Virus record (IMG/VR): IMGVR_UViG_3300032132_000010
Span: 1 to 50,683 of that record
Origin: a virus
Lineage: Duplodnaviria > Caudoviricetes
DNA length: 50,683 nt
Reading direction: 5' to 3' (one strand)
Below the pieces are notes generated by a model. That model had not been told where the DNA came from and ran no database searches. It was given only the letters and a program-made list of their open reading frames with translations. Below are positions 17,119 to 32,676 of the stretch, in pieces (position 1 is the first letter of the stretch; the number at the start of each line of letters is the position of its first letter). The position numbers and the translations under genes were made by a program.

Positions 17119-17681
17119 TGGGTGCGGGCGCAGCGGCGGGCGGCGGCGGGGCTCTCCAGGCCATCGCTGCGTTCAACAGCGCGATGCAAGAGAAGGAGAT
17201 GCACAAGTTCAACGCGCGGTTCCAGAAGGGGGGCCGCGAGAACGCCAAACGCCGCGGCCGCCTCGACAAGCAGAGGGTGTCTCTCGGAGAACGCCAGCTG
17301 ACCAGTCGGCAGCGCGTGGGCTTCGCGGATCAGGGCGTGGCCCTCGACAGCGGCAGCGCCCTGACGGTGCAGCAGGACACGGCGCGCATGGCCGAGCTTG
17401 ACCGCATCGAGATCGAGAACAACACGGCGAACGAGGTATGGGGCTTCGACGTCCAGATCGCGGAGTCCAACTTCAAGGCGAAGCAGGCCCGGAAGAAGGC
17501 ATACAACAGCCTGATCCTGGGGGCGGCCAGCGCGGCCAGTGCCTACGGAACCCCCGGCGCGGGCGCGCAGATCGGCGGCGGCGGCGGCAGCATTCCGATG
17601 TTCACCAAAGCCATCCCCTCGGTTGGCAGTAGCCCGTGGGGGCTCGACAACACGGCGTGGTGGAAGAAGACCGCCTCATGA
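17118..17681 (+). CDS. Internal virion (ejection) protein, T7 gp14-like
   Basis: QR...A.QGV.LDSGS motif, Gly/Ala-rich ends; TAATG coupling. Confidence 0.75.
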   Translation: MGAGAAAGGGGALQAIAAFNSAMQEKEMHKFNARFQKGGRENAKRRGRLDKQRVSLGERQLTSRQRVGFADQGVALDSGSALTVQQDTARMAELDRIEIENNTANEVWGFDVQIAESNFKAKQARKKAYNSLILGAASAASAYGTPGAGAQIGGGGGSIPMFTKAIPSVGSSPWGLDNTAWWKKTAS

Positions 17682-19990
17682 GCATCAACGTCCCCACCTA
17701 CGATCGCCTCCAGGTGCAGGCCAGGCCGCTCCCGGCCGCGCGCGTCGACACGCGCGTCGACACGGGCGAGGAGAAGCTGGCGAAGGGGCTCGACGCCATT
17801 CGCGCGAAGGAGCAGGAGCGCCAGGACGACGCCTACATCTCGGACGCGCTCGGCAAGATCAACGCGCAGCACACCGAGTCGCTGTACGGGGAGCGCGGCG
17901 TCACGCGCGCCCGCGGCCACGACCTCAACACGATGGTCGGGCCGGCGCGGCAGCAGTATCACTCCTTCCTGGACGAGACGCTGGACGCAGCGCCGAACGC
18001 GCGCATCAAGGCGCGGCTCACGCCTCATGTGCAGCAGGCCCGTGACCGCTGGCGCGGCGTCGTCGTCCCCCACATCGGGGACGAGCGGCACCGGATGGCC
18101 GTGTCGGCGCTCGACCAGTACCTCATCGACGAGAGCACGGCCGCGATCCACGACGCCGCGGAAGGCAAGGGCGTCCACGTGCGGACCATGCTGCCGGAGT
18201 TCGATGACAACGGCTTCTACATCGACCAGGACCGCCCCGTTCTGAAGGACAAGGACGGGAACCCGATGACGGAGCAGACGGCGACGGTCGAGTCGGATGG
18301 CGAGTACCTGCTGATCCCGCGCATCTGGGACGGCGAGCTGCATGAGGACGCCACCCCCGACGAGCTGATGGCGTCCGTAGCGTCCGGCGAGAACGAGATC
18401 GTGGGGCGCTACTCCTCGGAGAAGGAGGCGAACGCGGCAGCTGGGGCGCGGTCGGCCATGAAGGGCGTCGAGCGCGAGGACGTCTACCTGCGCGGCCTCA
18501 TCACCAGCGAGACGAACCAGAAGGCCCGCATCGACGAGTTCATCCGCTTGCACCCCGACAAGATGAAGGGGCTGACGGACGCCGAGTTCCGCAAGCAGGC
18601 ATACGAGAAGGTCGACTCCCAGCTGTACGGCGGCGCGATCCTCCAGATGATCGCGGAGGGCGACGACCTGATCGCGGAGCTGACGTTCGGGCGCGTGGCC
18701 CGCAAGCTCGACCTCAAGACGCGCGCCACGGTGGCGCGGGCGGTCAACAACGGGTCGAACGTCGGAGACGTCGAGCGGACGGTGCGCGATGCGATGGAGC
18801 GGTTCGCGCCGGACTTCACGATCCACGCGCGCGACGACTTCCGCGAGGAGGGTTTCGTCGGGCCGCTGCCCGCCGACGAGCCGCAGCGCATGACGGCGAG
18901 CGAGTCGCAGGCCGCGGGCATCGCGTGGATTCAGGATGAGGTGTACCCCGATGATCCCGAGAGGGCCGCTGACGCGGTGAGCCGGTTCCGGCAAGAGAAC
19001 GCGATCGCGCGCAGGGACCATGACCAGGCCGCGGCCGACCTGACGGACAACCTGACCACGCGGCTGCGCTCGGGCGAGATCAGCCACGCGCGGGCGAAGC
19101 AGCAGCCCGGCTACCTGACGCTGCTGGACGGCAAGCAGCGCGACTCGATCGAGGCGCAGGACAAGGCCAACCGCGGGGAGCTGGCGCAGGCCGCGCGGGA
19201 CAAGGTGTTCTACGACCTCCAGGCGCTCGCCTTCGCGGTGCCGCAGCCGAATGCAGACGGGGTGATTACGGCCGCGGCCGTCCAGGCGGCGCAGGCCACG
19301 CGCGCGGCGTTCCGCAACTCCGACCTCCGCTACCAAGCCCCGTACCTGTTCAACGGCGACGACGACAGCCGGTGGAAGATGGTGCAGAAGTGGCAGAGCG
19401 ACGCGAACACGGGAATGATGAACGCGCAGCAGGCCATCAGCTTCATGGCGCACGCCTTGTTCCCGAACAGCAGCCGCGACGACGCGCAGCGCGCCGAGGA
19501 GTACCGCTTCCGCGAGGCGGCCGATCAGCGCGCGAACGTGATCCGCGACGACAAGGGGCGCGAGCCCACCGCCGCGGAGATGCGCGAGGAGCTTCAGTTC
19601 TTGCTCGAGGAGCGTGTCGTCTACAAGGATCGCTTCCTCGGGTTCATCGACCGGCTCGCCTTCGACGAGGAGATCCGGCTCGATCAGGTCACGGTCGAGC
19701 ACCTTGGCGACGAGGTGATCCCGCTCGCCATCGGGATCGAGCTTCGCCAGAACCTCATCCGCCGCGGGGTGCTCACCTTCACCGACGAGATGCTCCGCAC
19801 GGAGTTCACCGCATGGCTCTCGCGCGGGAACAGGCTGCCCGGGGCCGAGGAGTGGGCCCCGCCGCCGGCCCCGTCCTTTGACGAGCTGGCAGGGCGCACG
19901 CGCGCAAACAAGTTCATCATGATCCGCGAGCCGCGCTTCCAGCCGTTCAGTGCCACGCAGCCCCCGCTGCCCGAGCCCGATGACCAGTGA
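17678..19990 (+). CDS. Internal virion (ejection) protein
   Basis: Helical 770-aa protein between gp14-like gene and giant gene; ATGA coupling. Confidence 0.65.
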   Translation: MSINVPTYDRLQVQARPLPAARVDTRVDTGEEKLAKGLDAIRAKEQERQDDAYISDALGKINAQHTESLYGERGVTRARGHDLNTMVGPARQQYHSFLDETLDAAPNARIKARLTPHVQQARDRWRGVVVPHIGDERHRMAVSALDQYLIDESTAAIHDAAEGKGVHVRTMLPEFDDNGFYIDQDRPVLKDKDGNPMTEQTATVESDGEYLLIPRIWDGELHEDATPDELMASVASGENEIVGRYSSEKEANAAAGARSAMKGVEREDVYLRGLITSETNQKARIDEFIRLHPDKMKGLTDAEFRKQAYEKVDSQLYGGAILQMIAEGDDLIAELTFGRVARKLDLKTRATVARAVNNGSNVGDVERTVRDAMERFAPDFTIHARDDFREEGFVGPLPADEPQRMTASESQAAGIAWIQDEVYPDDPERAADAVSRFRQENAIARRDHDQAAADLTDNLTTRLRSGEISHARAKQQPGYLTLLDGKQRDSIEAQDKANRGELAQAARDKVFYDLQALAFAVPQPNADGVITAAAVQAAQATRAAFRNSDLRYQAPYLFNGDDDSRWKMVQKWQSDANTGMMNAQQAISFMAHALFPNSSRDDAQRAEEYRFREAADQRANVIRDDKGREPTAAEMREELQFLLEERVVYKDRFLGFIDRLAFDEEIRLDQVTVEHLGDEVIPLAIGIELRQNLIRRGVLTFTDEMLRTEFTAWLSRGNRLPGAEEWAPPPAPSFDELAGRTRANKFIMIREPRFQPFSATQPPLPEPDDQ

Positions 19991-22900
19991 CGATCAACGT
20001 CCCAGCGTCAACGGGCGGCGACGGCGACGAGCAGCCCCAGCCCCAGCAGCAGCCCCAGCAGCAACAGGCACCACCGCGCCCGTCTGAGTCCCTGTCGAGG
20101 GACTTGCTCCGTCACGACGGGCCGCTCGCGCGCTTCGGGGAGAACGTGGCCCCCCCGCCCAGCTTCCGGGGGCCGGTCGACAACCTGATGGCGCACTACC
20201 GCGAGCGCGAGGCCGCGATGCAGCGGGCCGCGATGGTCGCCGCGAACAACGACCCCGACGAGTACGCCAAGGGGCTCACCATCGGCAAGCTGCTGGGGAT
20301 GCCCTCCTCAGAGGCGGGCCACAGCGCCGCGAAGTACGGCTCGCCGCTGTTCTTCCACCAGCTCGAGCACGACCTCCGGGCGATGGATCACAACCGGCCG
20401 CAGCTGGCCGCATGGCTGCGGAACGTCGACAACGCCGCGGTGTCCAGCGACGACCTGGACACGCTGGAGAAGCTGCACGACTCCATCGTGTTCGCGGGCA
20501 AGGAGCGGTCCTGGTTCGGTGAGATGTGGGAGGCCGGCGAGAACGGCCTCGTCGGCGTCCAGGCCAGCTACTACCACCTGGCGGGCCTCAAGGGGATGAT
20601 CGACCTCCAGGCCGCGGCCGAGGGTGCCGCCGACGCCAACCGGCGCATCCGCGAGTCCCGCGAGGGGCAGAGCATCGGCGTCCAGCGGTACTTCCAGCGG
20701 GTCGGGCGCGCCAAGGGTGCCCTCGACACCCTCATGGTGGCCTTCTCGGACCCGTCGAACCTCGGGATCATGATGGCGGACAGCCTCGGGTTCTCGGCCC
20801 CGTCGCTGGTTATGGCGGCGGCCGTTGGCAAGGCGGGCGCGGTTGGCGGGACCGCGCTCGGGACGGCGACGGGGCTCGCTCCGGTGGCCGCGGGGTTCGC
20901 GGTCGCTGGCGGTCTGGCGGGGGCGGCCGTTGGCGCGATGGCCGGCGGGACCTTCGTCGAGATGGGCGCGTGGATCAACCAGACCATCGAGGAGACGATC
21001 GACCCGACCACCGGCAAGGCATACGACATCACGGACGCCGACAGCCTGTTCCGGGCCTACTCCAACACGGCGCTGATGGAGCGGGCGCAGGCCGAAGGGC
21101 TCCGCAAGGGGCTCACGATCGGGGCCGTCGACGCCGCCTCGATCTTCCTCGGTGGGCGCTTCCTGCGGGCCGCTGCGGGCAAGGGGCGGCTGGCGAAGGT
21201 CGCCGCCTACGGCAAGGAGGGCGTCACTCAGGGCGCGATGGAGGGCGCTGGGGAGGGCTCCAGCCTGCTCGCCGTGGCCGGCGGCGATGTCCTCAACTGG
21301 ACCGAGGACGACTGGGCGGAATGGCGCAAGCAGATGGCGATCGAGAGCGCGGTGAGCCTCGGCCCCGAGGCGGGCCATGTCCTCATCGGCTACCTCGCCA
21401 GGAAGCCCCTGGACGCCCGCGAGCGCAAGATGGAGCGCGTCGGCAAGGCGCTTCAGGCCGAGCAGAACCTCGGGGCGCTGCTGGCCGCGGGCGAAGCCTA
21501 CGCCGACTCCAAGACGGCGGGCCGCAACGACGGCGACGAGGCCGGCGAGCTTGTGGACACCATCGCCAGCGGGGCCGGCGTGTCGATCCTGCGCTGGGAC
21601 AAGGTGACGTGGGACGAGTTCTTCACCTCGCGCGGCCTCTCTCCCGGCGAGGCGCTGGCCGAGATCGTCCCCGGCGAGGGTCCCGGCTCCGGCATTCGGA
21701 TGTACCACGACGCGCACGCGAACGGCGAGATCCGCGTGTCGCTGCGGGATCTGCTCAAGGCGAAGGCGAGCACCGAGGAGTACGCGCCGCTGGTCGCCTT
21801 GGCCCGTTCGCGGCATGACCTCCCCTCGCCGGTCGAGGCCGAGGAGGTCCTGGCCGAGCACGAACACGAGAACCAGGAGGTCGTGCGCCGGTTCCAGGAG
21901 GAGCGGACGCTCAACCAGGAGGCCGAGGACATCCGCGACAAGCTGGCCGCGGCCGAGGAGAATGAGGGCGAGGGCGGCCCGTCGCCGGAGGAGATGGTGA
22001 AGCTGCGCGGGCGGCGCGCGGAGATCGAGGCGCGGCTCCAAGAGCTCGCCAAGGGGCGCGAGACGGTGCGGCAGGAGAGCCAGGTCGTGTTCGACAAGGC
22101 GCTCGAGGAGCTGACGGCGGTGCGCGGTGCCGACCGGGACATCGGTGATCCGCGGGTCCTGGCGACGATGCACACGGCCATCGTGCAGACGAAGGCGGCG
22201 GCGGCCGGCGTCCCCGTGGCCGAGATGGCGAAGCGGGTGGATGTGTCGTTCGTGGCCGAGCAGGCACCGGCCGCTGGGGACCGGCCCGTGGCCCCGGTTC
22301 GTCCGGTAACTGAACCGGACGGCGAAGCGGACGCCGTAACCCCTGACGCAGCAACGGCTCCCGGTAGCGGACAGGAAGCGGACACCGAAGCGGACGCCGA
22401 CCGGACGCTCCCCGAGGCCGGCGACGAGATCGAGGTGTTCGACGCCCTCGGGAAGCCTCGCCGTGGCACCGTGCTGGCGGCCAAGGAGAGCGCGGATTCC
22501 GGCCGCCTCGTTCGCGTTCGATTCGATGACGGCACGGAGGCAATGGCCGCGGATCACGCCGACTTCGCTGGGGCGCGGACGCCAACCGGCGAGACGTACT
22601 CCCTCGGCGGCGGCCATCAGCCCGGACTGTCTACCCCGTCCTCCGTGACGGGCGTCCCGCAGGGGACGCTCATCCGTGACCTGACGGACGACCAACTGCG
22701 CTCCGTCAGCAAGGCGCTGAGCGATCACGCGGCGGCCAGCAGCGGCAAGACCTCCGTCGCCGCCACACGCGAGCTGCGCGCCGTGTCCGCAGAGGCGCAG
22801 CGCCGCAAGAGCGAGGCCGCCCCCGCCGAGACGGACGACGGCCGCGTCTCCTACGACGTCGAGGCCGATCGCCTGGAGCCGACCGGCGACATCGCGGCCT

Positions 22901-25900
22901 CCTACTCCGGGGACACGCTCGCCAAGGGCAAGGTGAACAAACCGTTCACCGAGGACGGCAGCCTGTGGCTGGCGACGGAGGTCACCGAGAACAAGGACGG
23001 GCAGACGGTGGCGAAGGCGTACCAGCTGACGCCCGCGAACGAGTGGACCGGCGAGACGGTCACCTACGACGAGGCGATCGAGCGCGGTGCCGACGCCGCC
23101 GTGGGCCTGTTCCACGGGGTCCAGGTCAAGGCAAAGACGATCCCTGGAGGGGATGACGCCTACGTGATGACGGGGCCGCCGGCGGACTTCGCGCCGGAGG
23201 CTGCCGCCCCAGCTGCCCCTGGACAGTCCACGGACAGTCCCGCGGCCCCGGCCGGCGAGACGCGCCGCCCGCACTACTCCGTCAGCCCCCAGCAGCTCGA
23301 GGAGGAGGCGCGAGCCGCAGCGGGCGGCACCCTGCACCTGGAGCCGCTGGAGGCGTTCCCGCACCCGCACCTCGCCGGGCTCGCCAGCGTCCTCGCGTCG
23401 ATGGGCGACGAGGCCCCCGTCGTGACCTACGACCGCGGAGTTCTGAATCCGACCGTGGCAGATGACGATCGGTTCCGCGAGAAGTTCGACCTGATCGAGC
23501 GGTTCGTAGGAGAGGGGGCCGACGCGGCCATCCCCGCGATCGAGGACGAGCCCGAGGTGGAGGTGGTGCCGGACGACGAGTTCGAGGCCGAGGACCCGCC
23601 GAAGAACGCCAAGCCGCTGGCCGATGAGCCCACCGAGGGGGGCAACCCCGTCAAGGAGTTCCTGGAGGGCTTGGTCGACAAGGCGAACGAGGTGCTGGGG
23701 CCGCCGCCCAGTCAGGAGGAGGGGGCGACACCGACCGCGCCCCCAGCCGCGCCGGCCCCCGACGCCACGCTGCCGGATGACCAGGCCGCCGAGAGCCCCG
23801 AGATCGCGGAGAAGGTGAAGCGGACGGTCGAGCTTGCCGACCGCCTCGACGCCCGTCTGGTGATTGGGCACAAGGATGGCGCGTTCACCCCCCCCGCCCC
23901 GATGACGTGGCAGGAGCTCCAGCGCGAGGCCGCGACCTACTTCGGCGGGACGCAGGCCGAGGGCGCGTTCACCTCCCAAGACCTCGCCAACGCCACGGAG
24001 TTCTGGCTGAACCGGCGCATCGCCCGCTACCCGAACCCCGAGGCGCTGCGGTTTGAGGACTGGGTTGCGCTCGTCCGCAGCTGGAGCGAGCTGATCCCCA
24101 CGCAGACGCGGCGCACCGACGACAAGGTGAAGTTCCAGCAGTTCAGCACCCCGTCCGAGTACGCGGCCGTGATCGCGTGGGTTGCCAACGTGACGGCCGA
24201 GGACGTCGCGCTCGAGCCGTCCGCGGGCACGGGCAACATCGCGGCCCACGCCAAGGTCCGAGGCGCGGCGGTGGTCGCCAACGAGATCGACCCGATGCGC
24301 GCGGCGCTGCTGCGCGCGTTGGAGATCCCGGTGATCTACAACGAGAACGCCGAGCAGATCAGCAACATCCTCCCCGACATCAACCCGACCGTCGTGGTCA
24401 TGAACCCGCCGTTCAGCTCCTCGGGAACGCGGAACAAGAAGGACACGATGATCGGCTCGCAGCACATCGACCAAGCCCTCAAGATGCTGCGCCCCGGTGG
24501 CCGACTTGTGGCGATCGTGGGCGGCGGGCAGGCCCGGAAGGGCACAGGGCGCACAGGGATGGCGTTTGAGGCGTCCAGCTTCCGCGGATGGTGGAAGCGG
24601 ACCATGGACACCTACACCGTCCGCGCTAACGTAGGGGTGGCCGGCAAGGTCTACAGCCGCCTCGGGACCAGCTTCCCGACCCGCGTCCTGGTGATCGACA
24701 AGACCGGCCCGACAGCCAACCCGGAAAGCGCGCTCGACGTCGACGTCGAAACGCTGGGCGAGCTGATCACCGCTCTGGAGGACGTGAGAGATGCCCGCCC
24801 CGAAGTGGATCGAGAGAGTGGACGCCCAAGCGTTGAAGCACCTGGAGACGCTGGGAGTGAGTCCGGCGGGCGAGCCCCCGACGCTGGTGCTCCTGTCGCT
24901 CGGCCTGGAAGCGGCGGCGGGGGAGTTCAACAGCCCGGCGTACGAACCGATACTGGAGACGGAGATCGCGGACCTGCGCCTGCTGGCGGCGACGGACCCG
25001 CAAGCGGCGATGGAGCAGCTGGGGGACCCGCAGATGCCGCTGGATCACCTGGAGCCGCTGGAGGCGGGCAAGCAACTGGTGGAGCAACTGCACAGCCGGC
25101 TGGGGGAGACGCAGGAGGACTACCCGCCAGCGACGACGCTGCCGGTGCAGCACCCTCCGGCGTAGAGGACACCGCGGCCGAGGAGTCGCCCCAGGACGAA
25201 GCCCTCATCGAGAAGGGCGCGGAGTTCATCGCGGAGGCCGACGACGAGGCGGGCGTGTTCGACACCTACGCTCCGGCCATCGCCGTCAAGGGCGCGAGCC
25301 CTCACCCATCGCCGCTGGTCGAGAGCGCGGCCATGGCGTCGGTCAGCTTCCCCGAGATCAAGCACGACCTCCGGTTGTCGAAGGAAGCCATCGCGGGCGC
25401 GTCGAACGCGCAGCTGGAGACGGCCGCGCTCGCGGGGCAGGCGTTTGAAGTCATCCTCCCCAACGGCAAGCGCCAAGGCTTCTTCGCGGGTGACGGCACG
25501 GGCGTCGGCAAGACGCGCGAGATCATCGCCATCCTGATGGACAACATGAACCACGGGCGCAAGCGCCACGTGTGGGTATCGGCCAGCAAGGACCTGTACG
25601 ACGACGCGGTGAGGGAGTGGGGCTCGATGGGCGGCGACCCGGCGCTGCTCATGAACATGAAGAAGGTCAAGGCCAACACGGGGAAGATCCCCAACCAGGA
25701 CGGCGTGGTGTTCGTCAACTACGACACCCTGAAGGTTGGGGCGCAGTACCTACCGGACGGCGAGGCCATCACGGACGAAGGCAAGGTGTCCCGCCTCGAC
25801 CAGATCCGCGAGTGGCTAGGCACGGAGTCCGAGGAGGCCGCCGCAGAGTTCGACGGCGTGATCGTGTTCGACGAGTCGCACAAGATGGGCTCGGCCATCG

Positions 25901-28900
25901 CGCAGAAGAAGGGCGGGAAGGGGCCATCGGCCACGGCGCTATCCGGCCTTTACGCTCAAGACACGCACCCGCTCGGCCGCCTCGTCTACGCATCCGCGAC
26001 GGGCGCAACCGAGGTGCACAACCTCGCCTACGCCGAGCGCCTTGGACTGTGGGGCGAGGGGACGGCGTTCGGCAACGTGCTCGAGTTCGTGGCGAAGATC
26101 GGCAAGGGCGGGCTCGCCACCATGGAGCAGATCGCGCGCGAGCTGAAGCAGCGCGGGCTCTACACAGCGCGCGCCATCTCCATGAAGGGCGTCAAGTACG
26201 AGCGCCTGGAGCACAACCTCACCGACGAGCAGACGACCATCTACAACCGCGTGGCCGAGGCGTGGCAGATCGTCCACAAGAACATGGTCGCGGCGACACA
26301 GATTACCGAGGGCGGCAAGGAGGCGAACAAGCGATGGAAGGGCCAATACTGGGGGCTCAACCAACGGTTCTTCGACCAGATCATGACGTCGATGGCGATG
26401 CCTTCGACGCTCAAGCAGATGCACGCCGACATCGACGCCGGGCATTCGGTTGTGATCCAGCTGATCAACCACTACGGCGAACGCTTGGAGCGGCTGGAGG
26501 CTGAGCGAAAGCGCCAGGTCGCGGCTGGGGAGATTGATGAGGAGGCGTCGTTCGACTACGACCTCTCGCCCAAGGGTGACCTCATCGAGATGGTGAAGAA
26601 GGCGTTTCCTGTGCAGCAGTACGAGGAGGTGGTCGGGCCGGACGGCAAGCCGTTCAAGCGGCCCGTGACCGACAGCGAGGGCAAGCCCGTACTGAACCAG
26701 GAAGCCGTGCGGATGCGCGACGAGCTGCTGCTCGACCTGGATGAGCTTCGCATCCCGCTCGGGCCGGTCGACATGATCTATCAGGAGTTCGGCTCGGAGC
26801 GGGTGGGCGAGATCACCGGGCGCAAGCAGCGCGTCGAGTTCGTGGACGGCCGGCAGGTTGTGGTCAAGCGCAAGGAGAAGGCCGAGAACAAGGCGGCGGC
26901 CGACGACTTCATGGGCGACCGCATCCCCATCCTGATCTTCACCAAGAAGGGCGGGACGGGGCGCAGCTACCACGCCGACCTCGGCGCGAAGAACCAGCGG
27001 CTCCGCAGGCACTACGTCGTGCAGTCGGGCTGGATCGCCAACGACACGATCCAGGGGCTCGGCCGGACGCACCGGACCAACCAAGCGCAGCCGCCCGAAT
27101 ACATCCTCGTCCAGACGGACCTCCCCGGTCACAAGCGGTTCGTGTCGTCCATCGCGCGGCGCATCGAGCAGCTGGGCGCGTTGACCAAGGGCCAGCGAGA
27201 CGCGGGTGCGTCCCTGTTCACCGAAGCGGACAACCTCGAGGGCGCATACGGCAACCCCGCGGTGCGCCAGTTCATCAACAACATCGTCAACGGCAGGGTG
27301 GACGGCATCGAGGCCGAGGACTTGGTGGAGGAGCTGGGGATTACGGGCATCCTCACCGAAGCGGGCAACGTGGTGGACGCTAAGGTGCCCGAGGTCCCGA
27401 AGTTCCTGAACCGCATCCTGTCCACGACGACGGACAGGCAGACGGCGTGGTTTGAGGGCTTCAACAACCTGATGGTCGCCATGATCGCGGACGCGACCCA
27501 AAACGGAACGCTCGACACGGGGATGCAGACGCTCCGCGCGAAGTCGGTCAAGGTGAACAGCGTGACCGAGGTCCGCAAGGACGACGAGACGAAGGCCAAG
27601 ACGGAGCTCCTGTCGGTCACGACGACGAACGACAAGCCGCGTGTGCCGTGGGAGCAGGCGCAGAAGCGTTACCCCGCGGATTCGTTCTGGGTGAACAACA
27701 AGAGCGGCTTCGTCTGGTCGGCCGGCCCGAAGCGGAACCGCACCACGTCGGGCGGCAACGTCGAGGTGGTGCGCTCCATGTACGGACCAGGCGGGCGCGG
27801 GTCCGACGTCATGGACTACCAGCTGTCGGGGCACGGGAACAACTGGACGAACGTCACCGACGAGGCGCAGCTGGAGCGGATGTGGACCGAGCGGTACGAC
27901 AAGACGCCCGCCACCGAGGAGACGGACGTGCACCTCCTGACGGGGATGCTGCTCCCGATATGGGACAGGCTGCCGGACAAGGGCAAGGTCTACCGGATCA
28001 CGATGCCGGGCGGGACGCGCGTGATCGGGCGCGAGATCCCCGAGCGGGACCTGAGCTACACGCTGGAGAGGCTGGGCGTGGGCCGGCCGAAGCTGGAGAT
28101 GGAGCCCGCGGAGCTGGGCCGCCGCATCCTCGCGGGGGACCGCGCGGTGCTGTCGAACAACTGGGTGATCCAGGCCGTGACGGCGGCGAAGGAGACGCGC
28201 ATCGAGGTGGCCGGCCCGACGTTCGCCAACATGGACGCGCTCCAAAAGGCGGGCGTGTTCATCGAGACGCACGGCGGGAAGCGGCGATACTTCGTGCCGA
28301 CTGGCCCGCGCATGGCCGAGGCGTTGGAGGCGGTGCTGCTGGGGCGGGACATCATGCAAGTCGGCAAGCCGCGGACGATGCACCAGTCGGTGCTCGCTGG
28401 CGAGTCGCCGTTCCCGAAGCGCGAGAAGCCGACGCGGATGGGCCAGGAGGAAGCGCAGGCCGCTCCCGTGGAGGACGACAAGGAGTATCCGCAGGTTCGC
28501 GGCGGCATCGTGGACGGCCTCGAGGTGGGCGAGGACATCCCCAACGCCAGTTCCATCAGCGCCTCGCTGGGCGAGGACTACGAGGAGGTCGGCGTCCGCG
28601 AGATCCCGATGTCCGACTTCAGCTTCGACCCACAGCAGCTCTACTACGGCAGCCACCAGTTCCGCCGCGCCGAGGCGTTGGCCGAGGAGATCCGCGAGTC
28701 AGGCCGCATCGACCCGCTGATCGTCGTGCAGGACGGACACGCCGATGGGCCGTACCTGCTGGAAGGCCAGCACCGTGCGGGAGCCCTGCACATCCTTGGC
28801 AAGACCAGCTTCCCCGCGCTCGTCGTGCGCGACCTTGACCGCGAGACGATCACGCGCCAGCAGGGCCGCGGCGGCACGGGCGGCCCGCGCGGCGCGACGA

Positions 28901-31900
28901 CCTACTTCGCCACGCCCGACGAGCACGGACGGCGCGCGTTCACCGTCGCGTTCTACGAGAACGCCAACCGCTCGACCTTCTTTCACGAGATGGGGCACGT
29001 GTGGCTCGAGGCCATGGGGGACCTGGCCGAAGATCCCGAGTTCGGTGACGCCTTCAAGGACGACTGGACGTTCATCCTGTCCTTCCTCAACGTCACCAGT
29101 CGCGCCGAGATCGGTGAGCCCGAGCATGAGAAGTTCGCGGACGCCTTCATGTTCTTCGTGCTGGAGGGCAAGAGCCCGTCCGCGCGCCTGCGTCCGGCGT
29201 TCGCCTCGGCCGAGCGGTGGCTGATCCGCCTGTTCCGCAACCTCGACGACAAGGACATCGACCTCAACGACGACATGAGGGGGATCGCCGCGCGGCTGCT
29301 GGCGACCGACGACGAGATCGCGGCGGCCGAGTACGAGCTTGGCGGCACGGGGCTCTCCGACGAGATCCTGGCGGGCATGGACGAGGCCGATCGCGCCACG
29401 TACCTGAAGCACGTGGCCGCGGCCGGCGACATCGCGCGCGCGGAGCTGGGCGCACAGGTGCTCCACAACGAGGCCCGCGCGGCGGCGCGCGAGGAGAAGA
29501 TGGAGGAGTTCCGGGCGAAGGCCGCGAAGCGCGTGGACGAGCTCCCCGAGTCGGTGGTGCTCTCGGCCATGGCTCACGGCACGATGCCGGACGGCTCGCC
29601 GCTGCCCGAGGGGCTGTCGACCATGAAGCTGGACAAGGCTTCAGTGGTCGAGGCTCTGACCGTCATCAGCGCCGAGACAGGGCAGCCCTACGTGCGCTCC
29701 CCGAAGGTGGTCGAGCGCCTGGAGGACGCGGGGGTCCTGACGAACCAAGGCGGGGTCCCGGTGGAGCAGGCCGCCGAGGAGTGGGGCTTCGGCAGCGGCG
29801 ACGAGATGGCCCGTCGTATGTCGATCGCCCTGGACAAGCCGAGCCTCGTCGAAACGATGGCCCAGCAGGAGCTTGGCAACGAGTTCCCCGAGCTGCTGGG
29901 GACCCGTCAGATCCGCACCCTGCGCCGCAAGGCGGTCGCCAACGAGGAACGGGTGAAGCAGCTCGAGGACGAGCACAGGGAGCTACAGCGCCACAGGCGG
30001 GCCGCTGTGGACCGCATCCCCAGTCAGGCAGAGATCAAGGCGTCCGTGCTGGCCTTCCTCCGGCCGCTGCCCATCTCGGCGCTCCAGCCGCAGGCGTTCC
30101 TCTCGGCCGCTGGGCGCGAGGGCAACAAGTCTGCCGCCAGGTGGCGCGTCGGGGACTGGGATGGCGCGGCCGAGGCCAAGCGGCTGGAGCGGTGGAACCT
30201 GCTCGCGTTCATCGAGTCGACCAAGATGCTGACGCACGTCGAGCGGCAGAGCCGCTGGCTCAGTAAGGCCGCCGACGAGAAGGGCGAGATCGCCAAGACG
30301 CTGAACAAGGCCGGCCACACCTACTTCCCGCAGGTGATGGCGCTCCTCGAGCGGTTCAGCTTTGTGCGGCGCTCGGGTCCTGGGCTGGATCGGCTGAAGT
30401 CTCTGCGCGATTGGGTGGAGGGGCAGCGGAAGCAGGCGCGCGAGGTCGGTGACTTCCGCGAGATGGACATCCCCGAGAAGCTGCTCGACGAGGCGTTCCG
30501 CAAAAACTACCGGGACATGACGGTCGAGGAGCTGGCGGACCTCTACGACGCGGTGGCGTCGATCCACCACGTTGCCAAGAACAAGGTGCGGATGCTGAAG
30601 GCGAAGCAGAAGCGGACGCTCCTGGACATCGTGAAGCAGATCGTCCCGACAGTGAAGGCGAGCAAGAAGGCGATCGTGCGCGGGATCGGCGCGCGCAACA
30701 AGCGCGAGCGGGCGATGGATCTGATGGACGACGTGTGGGCCGGCGGCGTGAAGGCGGGCTTCTACGCGCGCGCGATGGACGGTGACGTGGACGGCGGGCC
30801 GATGGCATCGCACGTGGTCGCGCGGCTCAACAAGGCGGTGGACGTCGGGGCCGAGCGACTGATCGAGGTGCACCGCGCGCTGGTCGGGCTCTACAAGGCG
30901 AGCTTCAGCAAGGAGTACCAGCGCAAGATCAACCGGCGCGAGGTGATCGCAGGGCTGAACCTCTCGCGCGAAGATGTGATGTCGATCGCGGGGCACTTCG
31001 GTAACCCGCAGGGCCGCCAACGGTTGCTGATGGGGCTGTCGAAGGAGCAGCTGGCCGCGGTGCTTCAGACGATGACCGCCGCGGAGTGGCAGTTCGTTCA
31101 GGGACGCTGGGACCTCTTTGAGTCGTTCTGGGCAGAGATCGAGGAGCAACACGCGCGCCTGACCGGCGTCCGGCCGCGCGCCGTCGAACACCTCCCCTTC
31201 ACGATGACCTCCTCGGACGGGATCGAGGTCGAGCTCTCGGGCGGGTATATGCCGCTGATGTATTCGGACACGCGCCCGAACGCCACGGAGCTGGACGAGT
31301 GGGCGAGCGAGACGTACCGAGGCTCGGCGCTGTTCAAGATGATGCGGCTCGGCTTCACCAAGACGCGCAAGGAGCACGTGGACCGGGCGCTGCGCCTGGA
31401 CCGCGGTGTCGTGACACAACACCTCGCGGACGTGGTTCACGCGCTGTCGGTGCGCGAGGCCGTGCTCGACGTGCGGCGCATCCTTGGCAACAAGGACGTG
31501 CACAAGATCATCGAGAAGCACTACGGCCCTGCGGCGATCCGCAAGCTGAACCACTGGGTGACCGACGTCGCGGCGGGCAGCGCGGGCAGCCGCGAGGGGT
31601 TGGAGAAGGTGCTCGCGTACCTGCGCTACGGCACGGTGATCGCGCGCCTCGGGTTCCGCCTCGTCTCGGCCCTGAAACAGTGGTACGGGCTGCGCGCAAC
31701 CGTCGTCCGCATCGGTGACACGCCGGCCGAGGGCGCGCACTGGATCGGCGTGGGCGTCAAGCGGTGGCTGTTCCACCACAAGGGGTCGGCCGTCGACACG
31801 CCCGCGTGGGTGATGAGCGTCAGTTCCTTCATGAAGGGGCGACTGAACGGATCGTTCCAGCGCGAGCTGAACGAGATGCGCCAGGAGGTGCAGCGCGAGT

Positions 31901-32676
31901 TCATGAACGCCGCGAACGAGTACGCCTTCTGGATGCTGGCGCGGATGCAGTTCGGTGCCGACCTGATTACGTGGCTCGCGCAGTACGAAAAGACGATGAG
32001 CGAGATGGGCGCGGGCGTCGACCTCAAGGAGTGGGAGGCCGAGGCGATCCAGCGGGCGGACCAGGCGGTGAAGGACACGCAGGGCGGCGGCCAGTCGGTC
32101 GACCTGTCGTGGTGGGAGCGTGGCAACCCATTGCTCCGTGTGCTCACCACGTTCTTCACCGACGCCGGGATCAAGTTCAACCTCACGCGGCTGTCCGCGC
32201 AGCGCCGTAGCTTCAAGGGTGGGACGCCCTACGAGAACGGCATCGAGTACGCGCGTTTCCTCGCGGACCTGTCGATCCTCTACTTCACGACGCCCGCCGT
32301 CGTGGCGCTGGCCGCCATGGCTGGGCTCGGGGATGACGACGATCCCGACGAGATCATGGAGCGGTTCATCCGCATGGGCTTCGGGGAGATGGCCGACATG
32401 GTGCCGATCTTGCGCGAGGCGTCGGGGCCGATTCAGGGCTACCCGTACCGCGGGCCGGCGGGCTTGGGTGCGGTGCAGACCGGCATCGCCATGTCGCAGC
32501 AGATCGGACAGGGCAAGCTGGACAAGGGGTTGTGGAAGAACAGCGCGTTGTTCGCGGGCAACCTGTTCCACTGGCCGACCGGGGCGCTCGTCGAGGGTGC
32601 CGAGGCGTTTGAGCAGATGCTCCGCGGCGATGCGCCGAGCGCGCTGCTGGGCTTCCGCGACTACAACAAGAGGTAA
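19987..32676 (+). CDS. Giant polyvalent ejection protein (4,229 aa): N6-adenine MTase + Strawberry-notch-type SF2 helicase + ParB-like + HExxH modules (DarB-like)
   Basis: LEPSAGTG (nt ~24211), NPPF (~24403), GDGTGVGK (~25489), DESH (~25870), SATG, QGLGRTHR, LLEGQHR (~28760), HEMGH (~28984); last gene of ejection cluster. Confidence 0.88.
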   Translation: MTINVPASTGGDGDEQPQPQQQPQQQQAPPRPSESLSRDLLRHDGPLARFGENVAPPPSFRGPVDNLMAHYREREAAMQRAAMVAANNDPDEYAKGLTIGKLLGMPSSEAGHSAAKYGSPLFFHQLEHDLRAMDHNRPQLAAWLRNVDNAAVSSDDLDTLEKLHDSIVFAGKERSWFGEMWEAGENGLVGVQASYYHLAGLKGMIDLQAAAEGAADANRRIRESREGQSIGVQRYFQRVGRAKGALDTLMVAFSDPSNLGIMMADSLGFSAPSLVMAAAVGKAGAVGGTALGTATGLAPVAAGFAVAGGLAGAAVGAMAGGTFVEMGAWINQTIEETIDPTTGKAYDITDADSLFRAYSNTALMERAQAEGLRKGLTIGAVDAASIFLGGRFLRAAAGKGRLAKVAAYGKEGVTQGAMEGAGEGSSLLAVAGGDVLNWTEDDWAEWRKQMAIESAVSLGPEAGHVLIGYLARKPLDARERKMERVGKALQAEQNLGALLAAGEAYADSKTAGRNDGDEAGELVDTIASGAGVSILRWDKVTWDEFFTSRGLSPGEALAEIVPGEGPGSGIRMYHDAHANGEIRVSLRDLLKAKASTEEYAPLVALARSRHDLPSPVEAEEVLAEHEHENQEVVRRFQEERTLNQEAEDIRDKLAAAEENEGEGGPSPEEMVKLRGRRAEIEARLQELAKGRETVRQESQVVFDKALEELTAVRGADRDIGDPRVLATMHTAIVQTKAAAAGVPVAEMAKRVDVSFVAEQAPAAGDRPVAPVRPVTEPDGEADAVTPDAATAPGSGQEADTEADADRTLPEAGDEIEVFDALGKPRRGTVLAAKESADSGRLVRVRFDDGTEAMAADHADFAGARTPTGETYSLGGGHQPGLSTPSSVTGVPQGTLIRDLTDDQLRSVSKALSDHAAASSGKTSVAATRELRAVSAEAQRRKSEAAPAETDDGRVSYDVEADRLEPTGDIAASYSGDTLAKGKVNKPFTEDGSLWLATEVTENKDGQTVAKAYQLTPANEWTGETVTYDEAIERGADAAVGLFHGVQVKAKTIPGGDDAYVMTGPPADFAPEAAAPAAPGQSTDSPAAPAGETRRPHYSVSPQQLEEEARAAAGGTLHLEPLEAFPHPHLAGLASVLASMGDEAPVVTYDRGVLNPTVADDDRFREKFDLIERFVGEGADAAIPAIEDEPEVEVVPDDEFEAEDPPKNAKPLADEPTEGGNPVKEFLEGLVDKANEVLGPPPSQEEGATPTAPPAAPAPDATLPDDQAAESPEIAEKVKRTVELADRLDARLVIGHKDGAFTPPAPMTWQELQREAATYFGGTQAEGAFTSQDLANATEFWLNRRIARYPNPEALRFEDWVALVRSWSELIPTQTRRTDDKVKFQQFSTPSEYAAVIAWVANVTAEDVALEPSAGTGNIAAHAKVRGAAVVANEIDPMRAALLRALEIPVIYNENAEQISNILPDINPTVVVMNPPFSSSGTRNKKDTMIGSQHIDQALKMLRPGGRLVAIVGGGQARKGTGRTGMAFEASSFRGWWKRTMDTYTVRANVGVAGKVYSRLGTSFPTRVLVIDKTGPTANPESALDVDVETLGELITALEDVRDARPEVDRESGRPSVEAPGDAGSESGGRAPDAGAPVARPGSGGGGVQQPGVRTDTGDGDRGPAPAGGDGPASGDGAAGGPADAAGSPGAAGGGQATGGATAQPAGGDAGGLPASDDAAGAAPSGVEDTAAEESPQDEALIEKGAEFIAEADDEAGVFDTYAPAIAVKGASPHPSPLVESAAMASVSFPEIKHDLRLSKEAIAGASNAQLETAALAGQAFEVILPNGKRQGFFAGDGTGVGKTREIIAILMDNMNHGRKRHVWVSASKDLYDDAVREWGSMGGDPALLMNMKKVKANTGKIPNQDGVVFVNYDTLKVGAQYLPDGEAITDEGKVSRLDQIREWLGTESEEAAAEFDGVIVFDESHKMGSAIAQKKGGKGPSATALSGLYAQDTHPLGRLVYASATGATEVHNLAYAERLGLWGEGTAFGNVLEFVAKIGKGGLATMEQIARELKQRGLYTARAISMKGVKYERLEHNLTDEQTTIYNRVAEAWQIVHKNMVAATQITEGGKEANKRWKGQYWGLNQRFFDQIMTSMAMPSTLKQMHADIDAGHSVVIQLINHYGERLERLEAERKRQVAAGEIDEEASFDYDLSPKGDLIEMVKKAFPVQQYEEVVGPDGKPFKRPVTDSEGKPVLNQEAVRMRDELLLDLDELRIPLGPVDMIYQEFGSERVGEITGRKQRVEFVDGRQVVVKRKEKAENKAAADDFMGDRIPILIFTKKGGTGRSYHADLGAKNQRLRRHYVVQSGWIANDTIQGLGRTHRTNQAQPPEYILVQTDLPGHKRFVSSIARRIEQLGALTKGQRDAGASLFTEADNLEGAYGNPAVRQFINNIVNGRVDGIEAEDLVEELGITGILTEAGNVVDAKVPEVPKFLNRILSTTTDRQTAWFEGFNNLMVAMIADATQNGTLDTGMQTLRAKSVKVNSVTEVRKDDETKAKTELLSVTTTNDKPRVPWEQAQKRYPADSFWVNNKSGFVWSAGPKRNRTTSGGNVEVVRSMYGPGGRGSDVMDYQLSGHGNNWTNVTDEAQLERMWTERYDKTPATEETDVHLLTGMLLPIWDRLPDKGKVYRITMPGGTRVIGREIPERDLSYTLERLGVGRPKLEMEPAELGRRILAGDRAVLSNNWVIQAVTAAKETRIEVAGPTFANMDALQKAGVFIETHGGKRRYFVPTGPRMAEALEAVLLGRDIMQVGKPRTMHQSVLAGESPFPKREKPTRMGQEEAQAAPVEDDKEYPQVRGGIVDGLEVGEDIPNASSISASLGEDYEEVGVREIPMSDFSFDPQQLYYGSHQFRRAEALAEEIRESGRIDPLIVVQDGHADGPYLLEGQHRAGALHILGKTSFPALVVRDLDRETITRQQGRGGTGGPRGATTYFATPDEHGRRAFTVAFYENANRSTFFHEMGHVWLEAMGDLAEDPEFGDAFKDDWTFILSFLNVTSRAEIGEPEHEKFADAFMFFVLEGKSPSARLRPAFASAERWLIRLFRNLDDKDIDLNDDMRGIAARLLATDDEIAAAEYELGGTGLSDEILAGMDEADRATYLKHVAAAGDIARAELGAQVLHNEARAAAREEKMEEFRAKAAKRVDELPESVVLSAMAHGTMPDGSPLPEGLSTMKLDKASVVEALTVISAETGQPYVRSPKVVERLEDAGVLTNQGGVPVEQAAEEWGFGSGDEMARRMSIALDKPSLVETMAQQELGNEFPELLGTRQIRTLRRKAVANEERVKQLEDEHRELQRHRRAAVDRIPSQAEIKASVLAFLRPLPISALQPQAFLSAAGREGNKSAARWRVGDWDGAAEAKRLERWNLLAFIESTKMLTHVERQSRWLSKAADEKGEIAKTLNKAGHTYFPQVMALLERFSFVRRSGPGLDRLKSLRDWVEGQRKQAREVGDFREMDIPEKLLDEAFRKNYRDMTVEELADLYDAVASIHHVAKNKVRMLKAKQKRTLLDIVKQIVPTVKASKKAIVRGIGARNKRERAMDLMDDVWAGGVKAGFYARAMDGDVDGGPMASHVVARLNKAVDVGAERLIEVHRALVGLYKASFSKEYQRKINRREVIAGLNLSREDVMSIAGHFGNPQGRQRLLMGLSKEQLAAVLQTMTAAEWQFVQGRWDLFESFWAEIEEQHARLTGVRPRAVEHLPFTMTSSDGIEVELSGGYMPLMYSDTRPNATELDEWASETYRGSALFKMMRLGFTKTRKEHVDRALRLDRGVVTQHLADVVHALSVREAVLDVRRILGNKDVHKIIEKHYGPAAIRKLNHWVTDVAAGSAGSREGLEKVLAYLRYGTVIARLGFRLVSALKQWYGLRATVVRIGDTPAEGAHWIGVGVKRWLFHHKGSAVDTPAWVMSVSSFMKGRLNGSFQRELNEMRQEVQREFMNAANEYAFWMLARMQFGADLITWLAQYEKTMSEMGAGVDLKEWEAEAIQRADQAVKDTQGGGQSVDLSWWERGNPLLRVLTTFFTDAGIKFNLTRLSAQRRSFKGGTPYENGIEYARFLADLSILYFTTPAVVALAAMAGLGDDDDPDEIMERFIRMGFGEMADMVPILREASGPIQGYPYRGPAGLGAVQTGIAMSQQIGQGKLDKGLWKNSALFAGNLFHWPTGALVEGAEAFEQMLRGDAPSALLGFRDYNKR
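24791..25165 (+). CDS. Overprinted 124-aa acidic protein in the +1 frame of the giant gene
   Basis: GGAGG at 24777-24781 before ATG; codons in this frame are CTG/GAG/GCG-dominated while the host frame becomes A/T-ending and low complexity. Confidence 0.72.
   Translation: MPAPKWIERVDAQALKHLETLGVSPAGEPPTLVLLSLGLEAAAGEFNSPAYEPILETEIADLRLLAATDPQAAMEQLGDPQMPLDHLEPLEAGKQLVEQLHSRLGETQEDYPPATTLPVQHPPA

Follow-up and report, generated by a model that had tools for sequence, protein, structure and literature searches.

A conserved gene is very likely overprinted on the methylase-helicase spacer of a giant phage polyvalent protein

What is encoded by the low-complexity spacer that separates the DNA methyltransferase and helicase domains of a giant phage protein? 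The question arises at a 12.7-kb gene in virus record IMGVR_UViG_3300032132_000010 (Duplodnaviria; Caudoviricetes), whose whole stretch of 50,683 nucleotides is here called the window. A preliminary description of the window, made from its letters alone, had pointed to a 124-codon open reading frame (ORF) in the +1 frame of this spacer, with its own GGAGG and ATG, as a real nested gene. The ORF is present at positions 24791-25165 (Table 1), and it is very likely a real, conserved, overprinted gene. We put the probability at about 0.85 that the locus as a whole is best explained by a genuine +1-frame gene that lies over the giant protein's inter-domain spacer, with both frames being read. Sequence comparison shows the gene itself, its start signals, purifying selection on its frame, a product able to fold and a strict linkage to the enzyme pair.

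Codon usage sets the nested ORF off from its surroundings. In a sliding profile of frame-specific GC content at third codon positions (GC3) along the whole giant gene, the giant frame (frame 0) dropped to 0.45 in positions 24757-25116, versus 0.76-0.99 in segments clear of the spacer; as had been described, it turns here to A/T-ending codons and to Gly/Ala/Pro-rich low complexity. Over the same positions the +1 frame had GC contents of 0.74, 0.45 and 0.88 at codon positions 1, 2 and 3, which is the usual coding signature of this genome, and the GC3 of the nested ORF was 0.90. The switch in coding periodicity matched the borders of the nested ORF and was the sole clear GC3 anomaly in the giant gene. 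A much weaker dip in giant-frame GC3 lies at 22237-22596 (0.76 vs 0.81 in the +1 frame), where the giant protein is rich in Ala, Pro and Asp; the ORF list holds no +1 ORF of 80 codons or more within it, and it is probably a matter of mere low-complexity composition. Immediately upstream of the nested ATG are a Shine-Dalgarno (SD) sequence and a +1-frame TGA (Table 1); because of this TGA the +1 frame cannot be entered from upstream.

The same arrangement recurs in relatives of the giant gene. A search with giant-protein residues 1350-2100 yielded at least 1317 relatives, and a low-complexity methylase-helicase spacer was found in all 119 of the listed homologues examined (median 122 aa, listed range 95-282). 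The relatives' DNA was taken from viral contigs, with 321 relatives, and from one-genome-per-species contigs, with 565. Both flanks were identifiable in 81 viral loci (GC 0.34-0.70), 74 of them with spacers of 78-140 codons, four with long spacers and three with short ones. In 74 of 74, the +1 frame was open over at least 85% of the spacer, and the borders of the open frame lay near those of the spacer. In the four loci with spacers of 227-371 codons, a +1 ORF of 112-130 codons takes up roughly the first 120 codons of the spacer, and an additional in-frame segment comes after it; the three loci with spacers of 36-44 codons have no comparable +1 ORF. The extra segment (L058 2170-3282, L060 2170-2898, L063 2167-2847, L071 2167-3255) is not of low complexity, ends in a common motif like ...EW(I/V)(R/K)YAL..L....NW(I/V)..FY, and may be a giant-protein domain added after the dual-coding stretch.

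Among 71 analysable loci in bacterial genomes, 20 combine a spacer of 99-137 codons with a +1 frame that stays open for 115-171 codons. These loci come from Methylococcales, Burkholderiales, Syntrophobacteraceae, Clostridia/Eubacteriales, Opitutaceae, Xanthobacteraceae, Desulfobacteraceae and Chromatiaceae. No nested ORF was found in the 50 short-spacer genome loci, mostly of sphingomonads and rhizobia, or in L108. A nested copy is also present on the conjugative plasmid NC_016108.1 of Methylotuvimicrobium alcaliphilum 20Z (locus L085, ATG at 2174, stop-to-stop 2162-2515), where no coding sequence is listed at that place; the host gene was the only route to it. No nested copy is present on an Agrobacterium plasmid whose spacer is about 62 codons long.

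As a six-frame control, we counted the loci with no stop in the inner spacer among 86 unique long-spacer loci (78-140 codons, GC 0.34-0.70). Frame 0 was stop-free in 86, the +1 frame in 84, the +2 frame in one, and the three antisense frames in 18, 29 and 12; among the 23 loci with GC below 0.5, the corresponding numbers were 23, 22, 0, and 3, 0 and 6. Shuffling the frame-0 codons gave an expectation of 18.0 loci open in the +1 frame and a mean of 1.61 stops, versus 84 loci and 0.02 stops observed. The effect spans very different base compositions and host phyla, and stops in the +1 frame of homologous linkers, which the preliminary description had named as the finding that would speak against a gene, are almost wholly lacking. 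A 128-aa ORF on the opposite strand shares its codon boundaries with the nested gene. Its frame was stop-free in 29 of the 86 loci and in none of the 23 low-GC ones, and we judged that it is no gene and that high GC, together with the nested gene's codon usage, gives rise to it.

The start signals of the nested ORF are written into a conserved stretch of the giant protein. The giant-frame motif at the methylase end, typically L-E-G-(V/I)-R-(N/D)-x-R, is encoded as ..TG GAG GGn nTn AGA AAT Gnn, and the same codons spell GGAGG, a purine-rich spacer and, in the +1 frame, ATG. The junction motif was searched as [VIA][RK][ND][DEAGV]R; in all 72 unique loci with the motif the Asn/Asp codon was AAT (53) or GAT (19), either of which creates the +1 ATG. 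T-ending codons are otherwise a minority choice for these residues (12 of 159 Asn/Asp codons in the window; mean T fraction 0.24 in 21 loci of GC 0.6 or above). In 52 of 59 unique viral loci a four-base SD core occurred at -18 to -4 relative to the nested ATG, versus 642 of 4549 (14%) other ATGs in the same loci, and a +1 stop lay at most three codons upstream of the nested ATG in 22 of the 59. These upstream stops and the ATG/SD pattern favour independent initiation over frameshifting. In the form LLEG(V/I)R(N/D)xR (window 24763-24793; L005-L104), the junction motif is the most conserved peptide motif at the methylase/spacer junction; its arginine in the window is the rare codon AGA. Part of the motif's conservation as protein may be conservation of a translation start.

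The pattern of substitutions points to purifying selection acting on the +1 frame. In seven moderately diverged pairs of loci, nucleotide differences in the spacer numbered 148, 135 and 241 at +1 codon positions 1, 2 and 3, so that the third position of the giant frame is the least variable there. In the flanking methylase and helicase segments of the seven pairs, the differences at frame-0 positions 1, 2 and 3 were 138, 89 and 332, and 147, 109 and 375, respectively.

The +1 peptides form a recognizable protein family. A single-sequence search of 1.84 billion representatives gave four matches (P0122, P0124-P0126), namely a 99% identical copy and three relatives of 122-126 aa with 31-37% identity and E-values of 4e-6 to 6e-4. 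Their common motifs are an N-terminal M-P-x-P-x-W/N..Q-A-L and a C-terminal ..L-H..L....N/D-Y-P-P. The 99% copy and two of the three relatives had been called on contigs of 986-2158 bp in which the giant gene is truncated; the third relative is on a contig of 11,277 bp. A further candidate, the 1243-aa repeat protein P0123, had no matched stretch and was rejected as spurious. A family hidden Markov model (HMM) built from the window protein, 43 viral members and the three relatives (alignment A3) matched 17 of 20 +1 peptides of the independent genome loci, at E-values of 9e-4 to 3.5e-28, with zero matches to the +2 and frame-0 translations. Two further matches were the copy on the plasmid (E 9e-12) and L002, a locus of low GC (E 3.6e-7). 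The conservation of the family starts right at the nested ATG.

The expectation that standard callers would miss such a gene was borne out. Among 5.8 billion predicted proteins, just eight family members turned up in a profile search, from which it follows that gene callers nearly always miss the nested gene; the figure may be set beside the 1317 or more relatives of the giant protein, and the family is thus almost wholly hidden from current annotation. Searching with tblastn from the window product (P0001) gave no match in the phage and plasmid collections because the family is too divergent for a single-sequence tblastn, and a single-sequence scan of viral contigs likewise returned nothing; an alignment was needed.

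To place the nested gene in the history of its host (FastTree, methylase plus helicase N-lobe, 137 rows, spacer excluded, unrooted), we asked how carriers and non-carriers are distributed. One branch with support of 100 split the 88 carriers from the 49 non-carriers, which fits one gain or one loss. The short-spacer sister group (L073, L076, L077, L086, L105-L166) has spacers of 20-69 codons and no nested gene, and most of its members are on plasmids or in genomes of alphaproteobacteria (sphingomonads, rhizobia, Agrobacterium pAt). The host gene, whatever its spacer length, was found on 667 plasmid records. By these comparisons the nested arrangement is ancient and common to the whole long-spacer clade, whose members belong to phages, to conjugative plasmids and to the genomes of bacteria from several phyla, and the nested gene is strictly linked to the methylase-helicase pair.

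The product has the properties of a folded protein, and the preliminary description of it as acidic, Leu-rich and helical holds. The window protein has a net charge of -14 and a pI of 4.34; the family as a whole is about 121 aa long and soluble, with a median pI of 4.78 (53 of 59 below 5.5), 15% Leu and a normal aromatic content. The giant-frame spacer is 20% Gly and virtually without W, F, Y, M and C. AlphaFold2, run on the family alignment, predicted a five-helix structure with pLDDT 86.6 and pTM 0.77 (helices 9-21, 30-41, 51-68, 70-77 and 89-107). When the same DNA was read in frame 0 instead, in 37 of these loci, the prediction had pLDDT 63.8 and pTM 0.16 and contained no secondary structure. 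Neither the family nor its fold is a known one in the collections searched. Curated families gave no match above cut-offs (Pfam, NCBIfam and PADLOC with 47 members, PHROGs with the window protein only), with only scattered single-member matches among the 47, and PDB sequences gave no significant match. Fold searches with the AlphaFold2 model returned nothing that stood out in the PDB (Foldseek, best E 0.76) or BFVD (best E 0.70), a best Z of 5.1 among 48,161 chains with VIA-align, below the level usual for helical bundles, and no usable match in the ESM Atlas. Predicting a complex between the nested protein, the methylase domain and the N-lobe of the helicase (alignments A4, A5 and A6) gave no answer in either direction (score 0.02, mark 0.32).

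Because no family, structure or defence-system model matches, the function of the small protein has to be inferred. The suggestions in the preliminary description of an inhibitor, a DNA mimic or a chaperone were guesses; what the data offer in that direction is acidity, a helical fold and linkage to the enzyme pair. Three observations can serve as a basis: although polyvalent proteins otherwise shuffle their parts freely, the gene is confined to this one module; it shares its transcript with a late protein destined for the virion or for transfer; and its product is small, acidic and helical. The host protein is virion-borne and DarB-like. In the overprinting reading, ribosomes that translate the giant gene would run through the spacer and make of it an unstructured Gly-rich tether by which the two enzymes stay on a single chain, while others would start at the internal GGAGG-N9-ATG and make the 124-aa acidic five-helix protein. 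For this protein we tentatively propose a dedicated role beside the enzyme pair in the producer cell, either as an acidic chaperone resembling VirE1 or as an inhibitor. It would cover a DNA-binding surface until the giant protein is packaged or exported, and nesting would ensure that it is inherited and co-transcribed with the methylase-helicase module.

VirE1 is the small acidic chaperone that serves VirE2, an exported DNA-binding protein, and the chaperones of type III secretion are similar; both are made in the donor cell only. A dedicated chaperone of the VirE1 kind binds its cognate translocated protein there and does not itself move across. As a working analogy, the nested product resembles them in being small, acidic, helix-rich and encoded with a translocated DNA-acting protein. 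It differs from VirE1 in being overprinted, where VirE1 has a separate upstream gene, and no sequence or fold similarity between them was found. A stronger form of the proposal, which we regard as rather unlikely, is that the spacer is not primarily a linker at all: it would be a hidden gene for an immunity-like partner that is made only in the producing or donor cell, masking the DNA-acting surfaces of the giant protein or keeping it competent for export, and that stays behind on transfer. The giant frame would then be kept open only to hold both enzymes on one chain. If this were true, no accessory or immunity component of polyvalent proteins that works in the producer cell would have been described before the nested product.

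The main functional rival grants the gene and assigns it another job, as an independent counter-defence effector (a DNA mimic directed at restriction enzymes) or as a third subunit packaged and injected together with the giant protein. Ocr (T7 gp0.3, about 117 aa) and ArdA are strongly negative, helical DNA mimics with an antirestriction role that are expressed early, and the nested product resembles them in size, negative charge, helicity and antirestriction context. Such mimics have a fold that imitates B-DNA by a patterned acidic surface, usually as dimers. The whole family, strongly acidic, helical and about 120 aa long, would suit this job, and the host gene belongs to the DarB-like antirestriction class (PMC5512222). 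However, no mimic structure, Ocr and ArdA included, was among the listed Foldseek and VIA-align matches, and a position deep inside a late structural gene of 12.7 kb ill suits early expression, the more so as no promoter-like site turned up in 24000-25600 (one minus-strand terminator-like site there is at the chance rate). The strict confinement to one module argues for a module-specific role, and we consider the independent effector or co-injected subunit distinctly unlikely, less likely than the producer-cell partner.

A different alternative concerns how the +1 frame would be reached. Programmed +1 frameshifting from the giant frame would yield a truncated methylase with a helical tail instead of a free 124-aa protein. 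An SD-like element within a coding sequence can stimulate +1 shifting, as in prfB, which is the precedent for this alternative. We hold it to be very improbable: the +1 stop lies two codons before the ATG in the window and within three codons in 22 of 59 loci, there is no frame-0 stop or obvious shift site, an Rfam scan of 24500-25400 gave a chance-level match only and no known frameshift RNA element, and the ATG is kept in every motif locus, with family conservation from the ATG onward.

It is barely credible that the +1 ORF is a passive by-product of a Gly/Ala/Pro-rich, hydrophobic-poor spacer, open by chance and without a useful product. Such a composition does by itself lower the rate of +1 stops: the share of frame-0 codon shuffles that left the +1 frame open had a median of 8.7% over the loci and reached 95% in the most permissive. 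Chance nevertheless fails to account for the surplus of open frames in the six-frame control, low-GC loci included, for an ATG kept in 72 of 72 loci against codon bias and preceded by an enriched SD, for substitutions that gather at +1 third positions, or for +1 peptides that an HMM detects and that have a confident predicted fold where the frame-0 reading has none.

That the stretch is an assembly artefact or a compensated double frameshift, so that the true giant protein reads the +1 frame here, accords with codon usage that fits +1 and not the giant frame but is next to impossible, since none of the 119 giant homologues has the +1 peptide in frame (best BLASTP E 0.42), which rules it out, and since stops close off the +1 frame on either side of the stretch, the first frame-0 residues of the spacer (VRDARPEVDR) align with those of homologues such as P0003, the nearest homologue among them, the arrangement with both frames open recurs in related loci (frame 0 in 86 of 86, +1 in 84 of 86) and an independent contig encodes a 99% identical ORF of 124 aa.

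Several points weigh against an overprinted gene with a partner function. The openness of the +1 frame in the window is by itself marginal, 4.6% of frame-0 codon shuffles being stop-free (P about 0.05), and the loci are related, so that the counts of open frames are not independent events. Among the 59 unique viral +1 ORFs, 14 are open yet matched neither by the family HMM nor by BLAST with the core family, and the HMM missed three of the 20 genome peptides. Translation of the nested frame is a prediction from comparison between loci, support for the proposed function consists of charge, size and linkage, and the family, structure and defence-model searches brought up no similarity to any chaperone, inhibitor or DNA mimic. 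The strong evidence is the codon-usage switch and the comparison with related loci, not the openness of the +1 frame in the window. As to the unmatched ORFs (Table 1), small clusters can be made out among the divergent ones (L053/L050/L078/L068; L031/L065), and the lack of matches reflects either very fast divergence or more than one protein at the overprinted site.

Nested genes read out of frame are already known. Phage lambda has Rz1 within Rz, and Bacillus subtilis has comS within srfAB; both are small genes nested out of frame on the same strand, each with its own ribosome site, and the present gene is like both in being wholly embedded, on the same strand, out of frame and with a ribosome site of its own. 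It is like comS also in having a giant multi-domain gene as its host and in encoding a small protein unrelated to that of the host. Unlike either, it occupies an inter-domain spacer whose host product is tether-like, and it encodes a folded protein of about 120 aa that is conserved across phages, plasmids and several phyla. What is new here is this position in the spacer of an injected giant protein, the undescribed family, and the breadth of its conservation.

On the side of the host, Iyer et al. 2017 (PMC5512222) describe large polyvalent proteins with a DNA methylase-helicase dyad, whose archetype is P1 DarB. The present protein shares with that dyad, as there portrayed, association with the virion or with transfer, an adenine methylase fused to an ATPase of the SF2/SWI2-SNF2 type, and an LPD domain. 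It departs from P1 DarB in its Strawberry-notch-type helicase, the P1-type helicase being of another kind, and no match to P1-like records extended beyond the methylase. The words 'overlapping', 'linker' and 'low-complexity' are absent from the text of PMC5512222, which describes no second frame there. Full-text searching of the literature, with subscription journals and supplementary files outside its scope, found no description of the nested gene.

The reinterpretation of this spacer has some practical weight. A length-conserved, sequence-poor spacer of DarB-like antirestriction modules becomes a dual-coding region, and functional or structural study, recoding or engineering of such phages and plasmids would unknowingly alter a second protein. 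The locus also offers a natural model of long-term dual coding, with about 120 codons open in two frames from 34% to 70% GC, and with a conserved peptide motif of the host protein that doubles as the SD sequence and start codon of its guest.

Table 1. Positions of the features discussed, with the related loci whose +1 ORFs have no family match
Feature	Positions	Strand	Remarks
Virus record (IMG/VR)	1-50,683		50,683 bp, about 68% GC; rated 100% complete
Nested +1-frame gene (P0001)	24791-25165	+	124 codons + TAG; acidic five-helix protein (predicted)
GGAGG Shine-Dalgarno sequence	24777-24781	+	9 nt 5' of nested ATG; from giant-frame L-E-D codons CTG GAG GAC
+1-frame TGA stop	24785-24787	+	two codons before nested ATG
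Frame-0 spacer, methylase to helicase	24787-25164	+	giant aa 1601-1726 (126 codons); Gly/Ala/Pro-rich, without predicted structure, dual-coding
Giant large polyvalent protein gene (frame 0)	19987-32676	+	4229 codons, 12.7 kb
N6-adenine-type DNA methyltransferase domain	24106-24555	+	giant aa 1374-1523; phrog_9133, phrog_6263; weak Pfam MTS match
Strawberry-notch (Sno)-type SF2 helicase/ATPase	25300-27528	+	AAA_34 aa 1772-2088; Helicase_C_4 aa 2261-2514
Antisense ORF	24767-25153	-	128 aa
Unmatched +1 ORFs, same placement			L030, L031, L033, L035, L038, L051, L053, L054, L055, L062, L065, L067, L068, L078; also L093, L097, L111

The surroundings of the nested gene are those of a phage structural module. 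Terminase, portal/adaptor, protease, and major head and tail genes are followed by the giant ORF, whose product carries LPD22 (PF18834), the DNA methyltransferase, AAA_34, Helicase_C_4, ResIII, a ParB-like segment and a long phrog_9880 tail by Pfam and PHROG matches. With an LPD domain, an adenine methylase N-terminal of an SF2 helicase, and a place in the structural module of a complete phage contig, it has the features of a large-polyvalent dyad protein. The NPPF(S) motif of the methyltransferase domain is invariant in alignments A2 and A4, and the helicase is matched by PF13872 (E 5.5e-93) and PF13871 (E 1.8e-72). The stretch is present in one sequencing run, of DNA and labelled marine metagenome, possibly from the source sample, and no RNA run is listed as containing it. 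The ORF that precedes the giant gene (784 codons, 17636-19990) has no PHROG match; its last four bases are overlapped by the GTG start of the giant gene (19987-19990), which suggests translational coupling within the structural operon.

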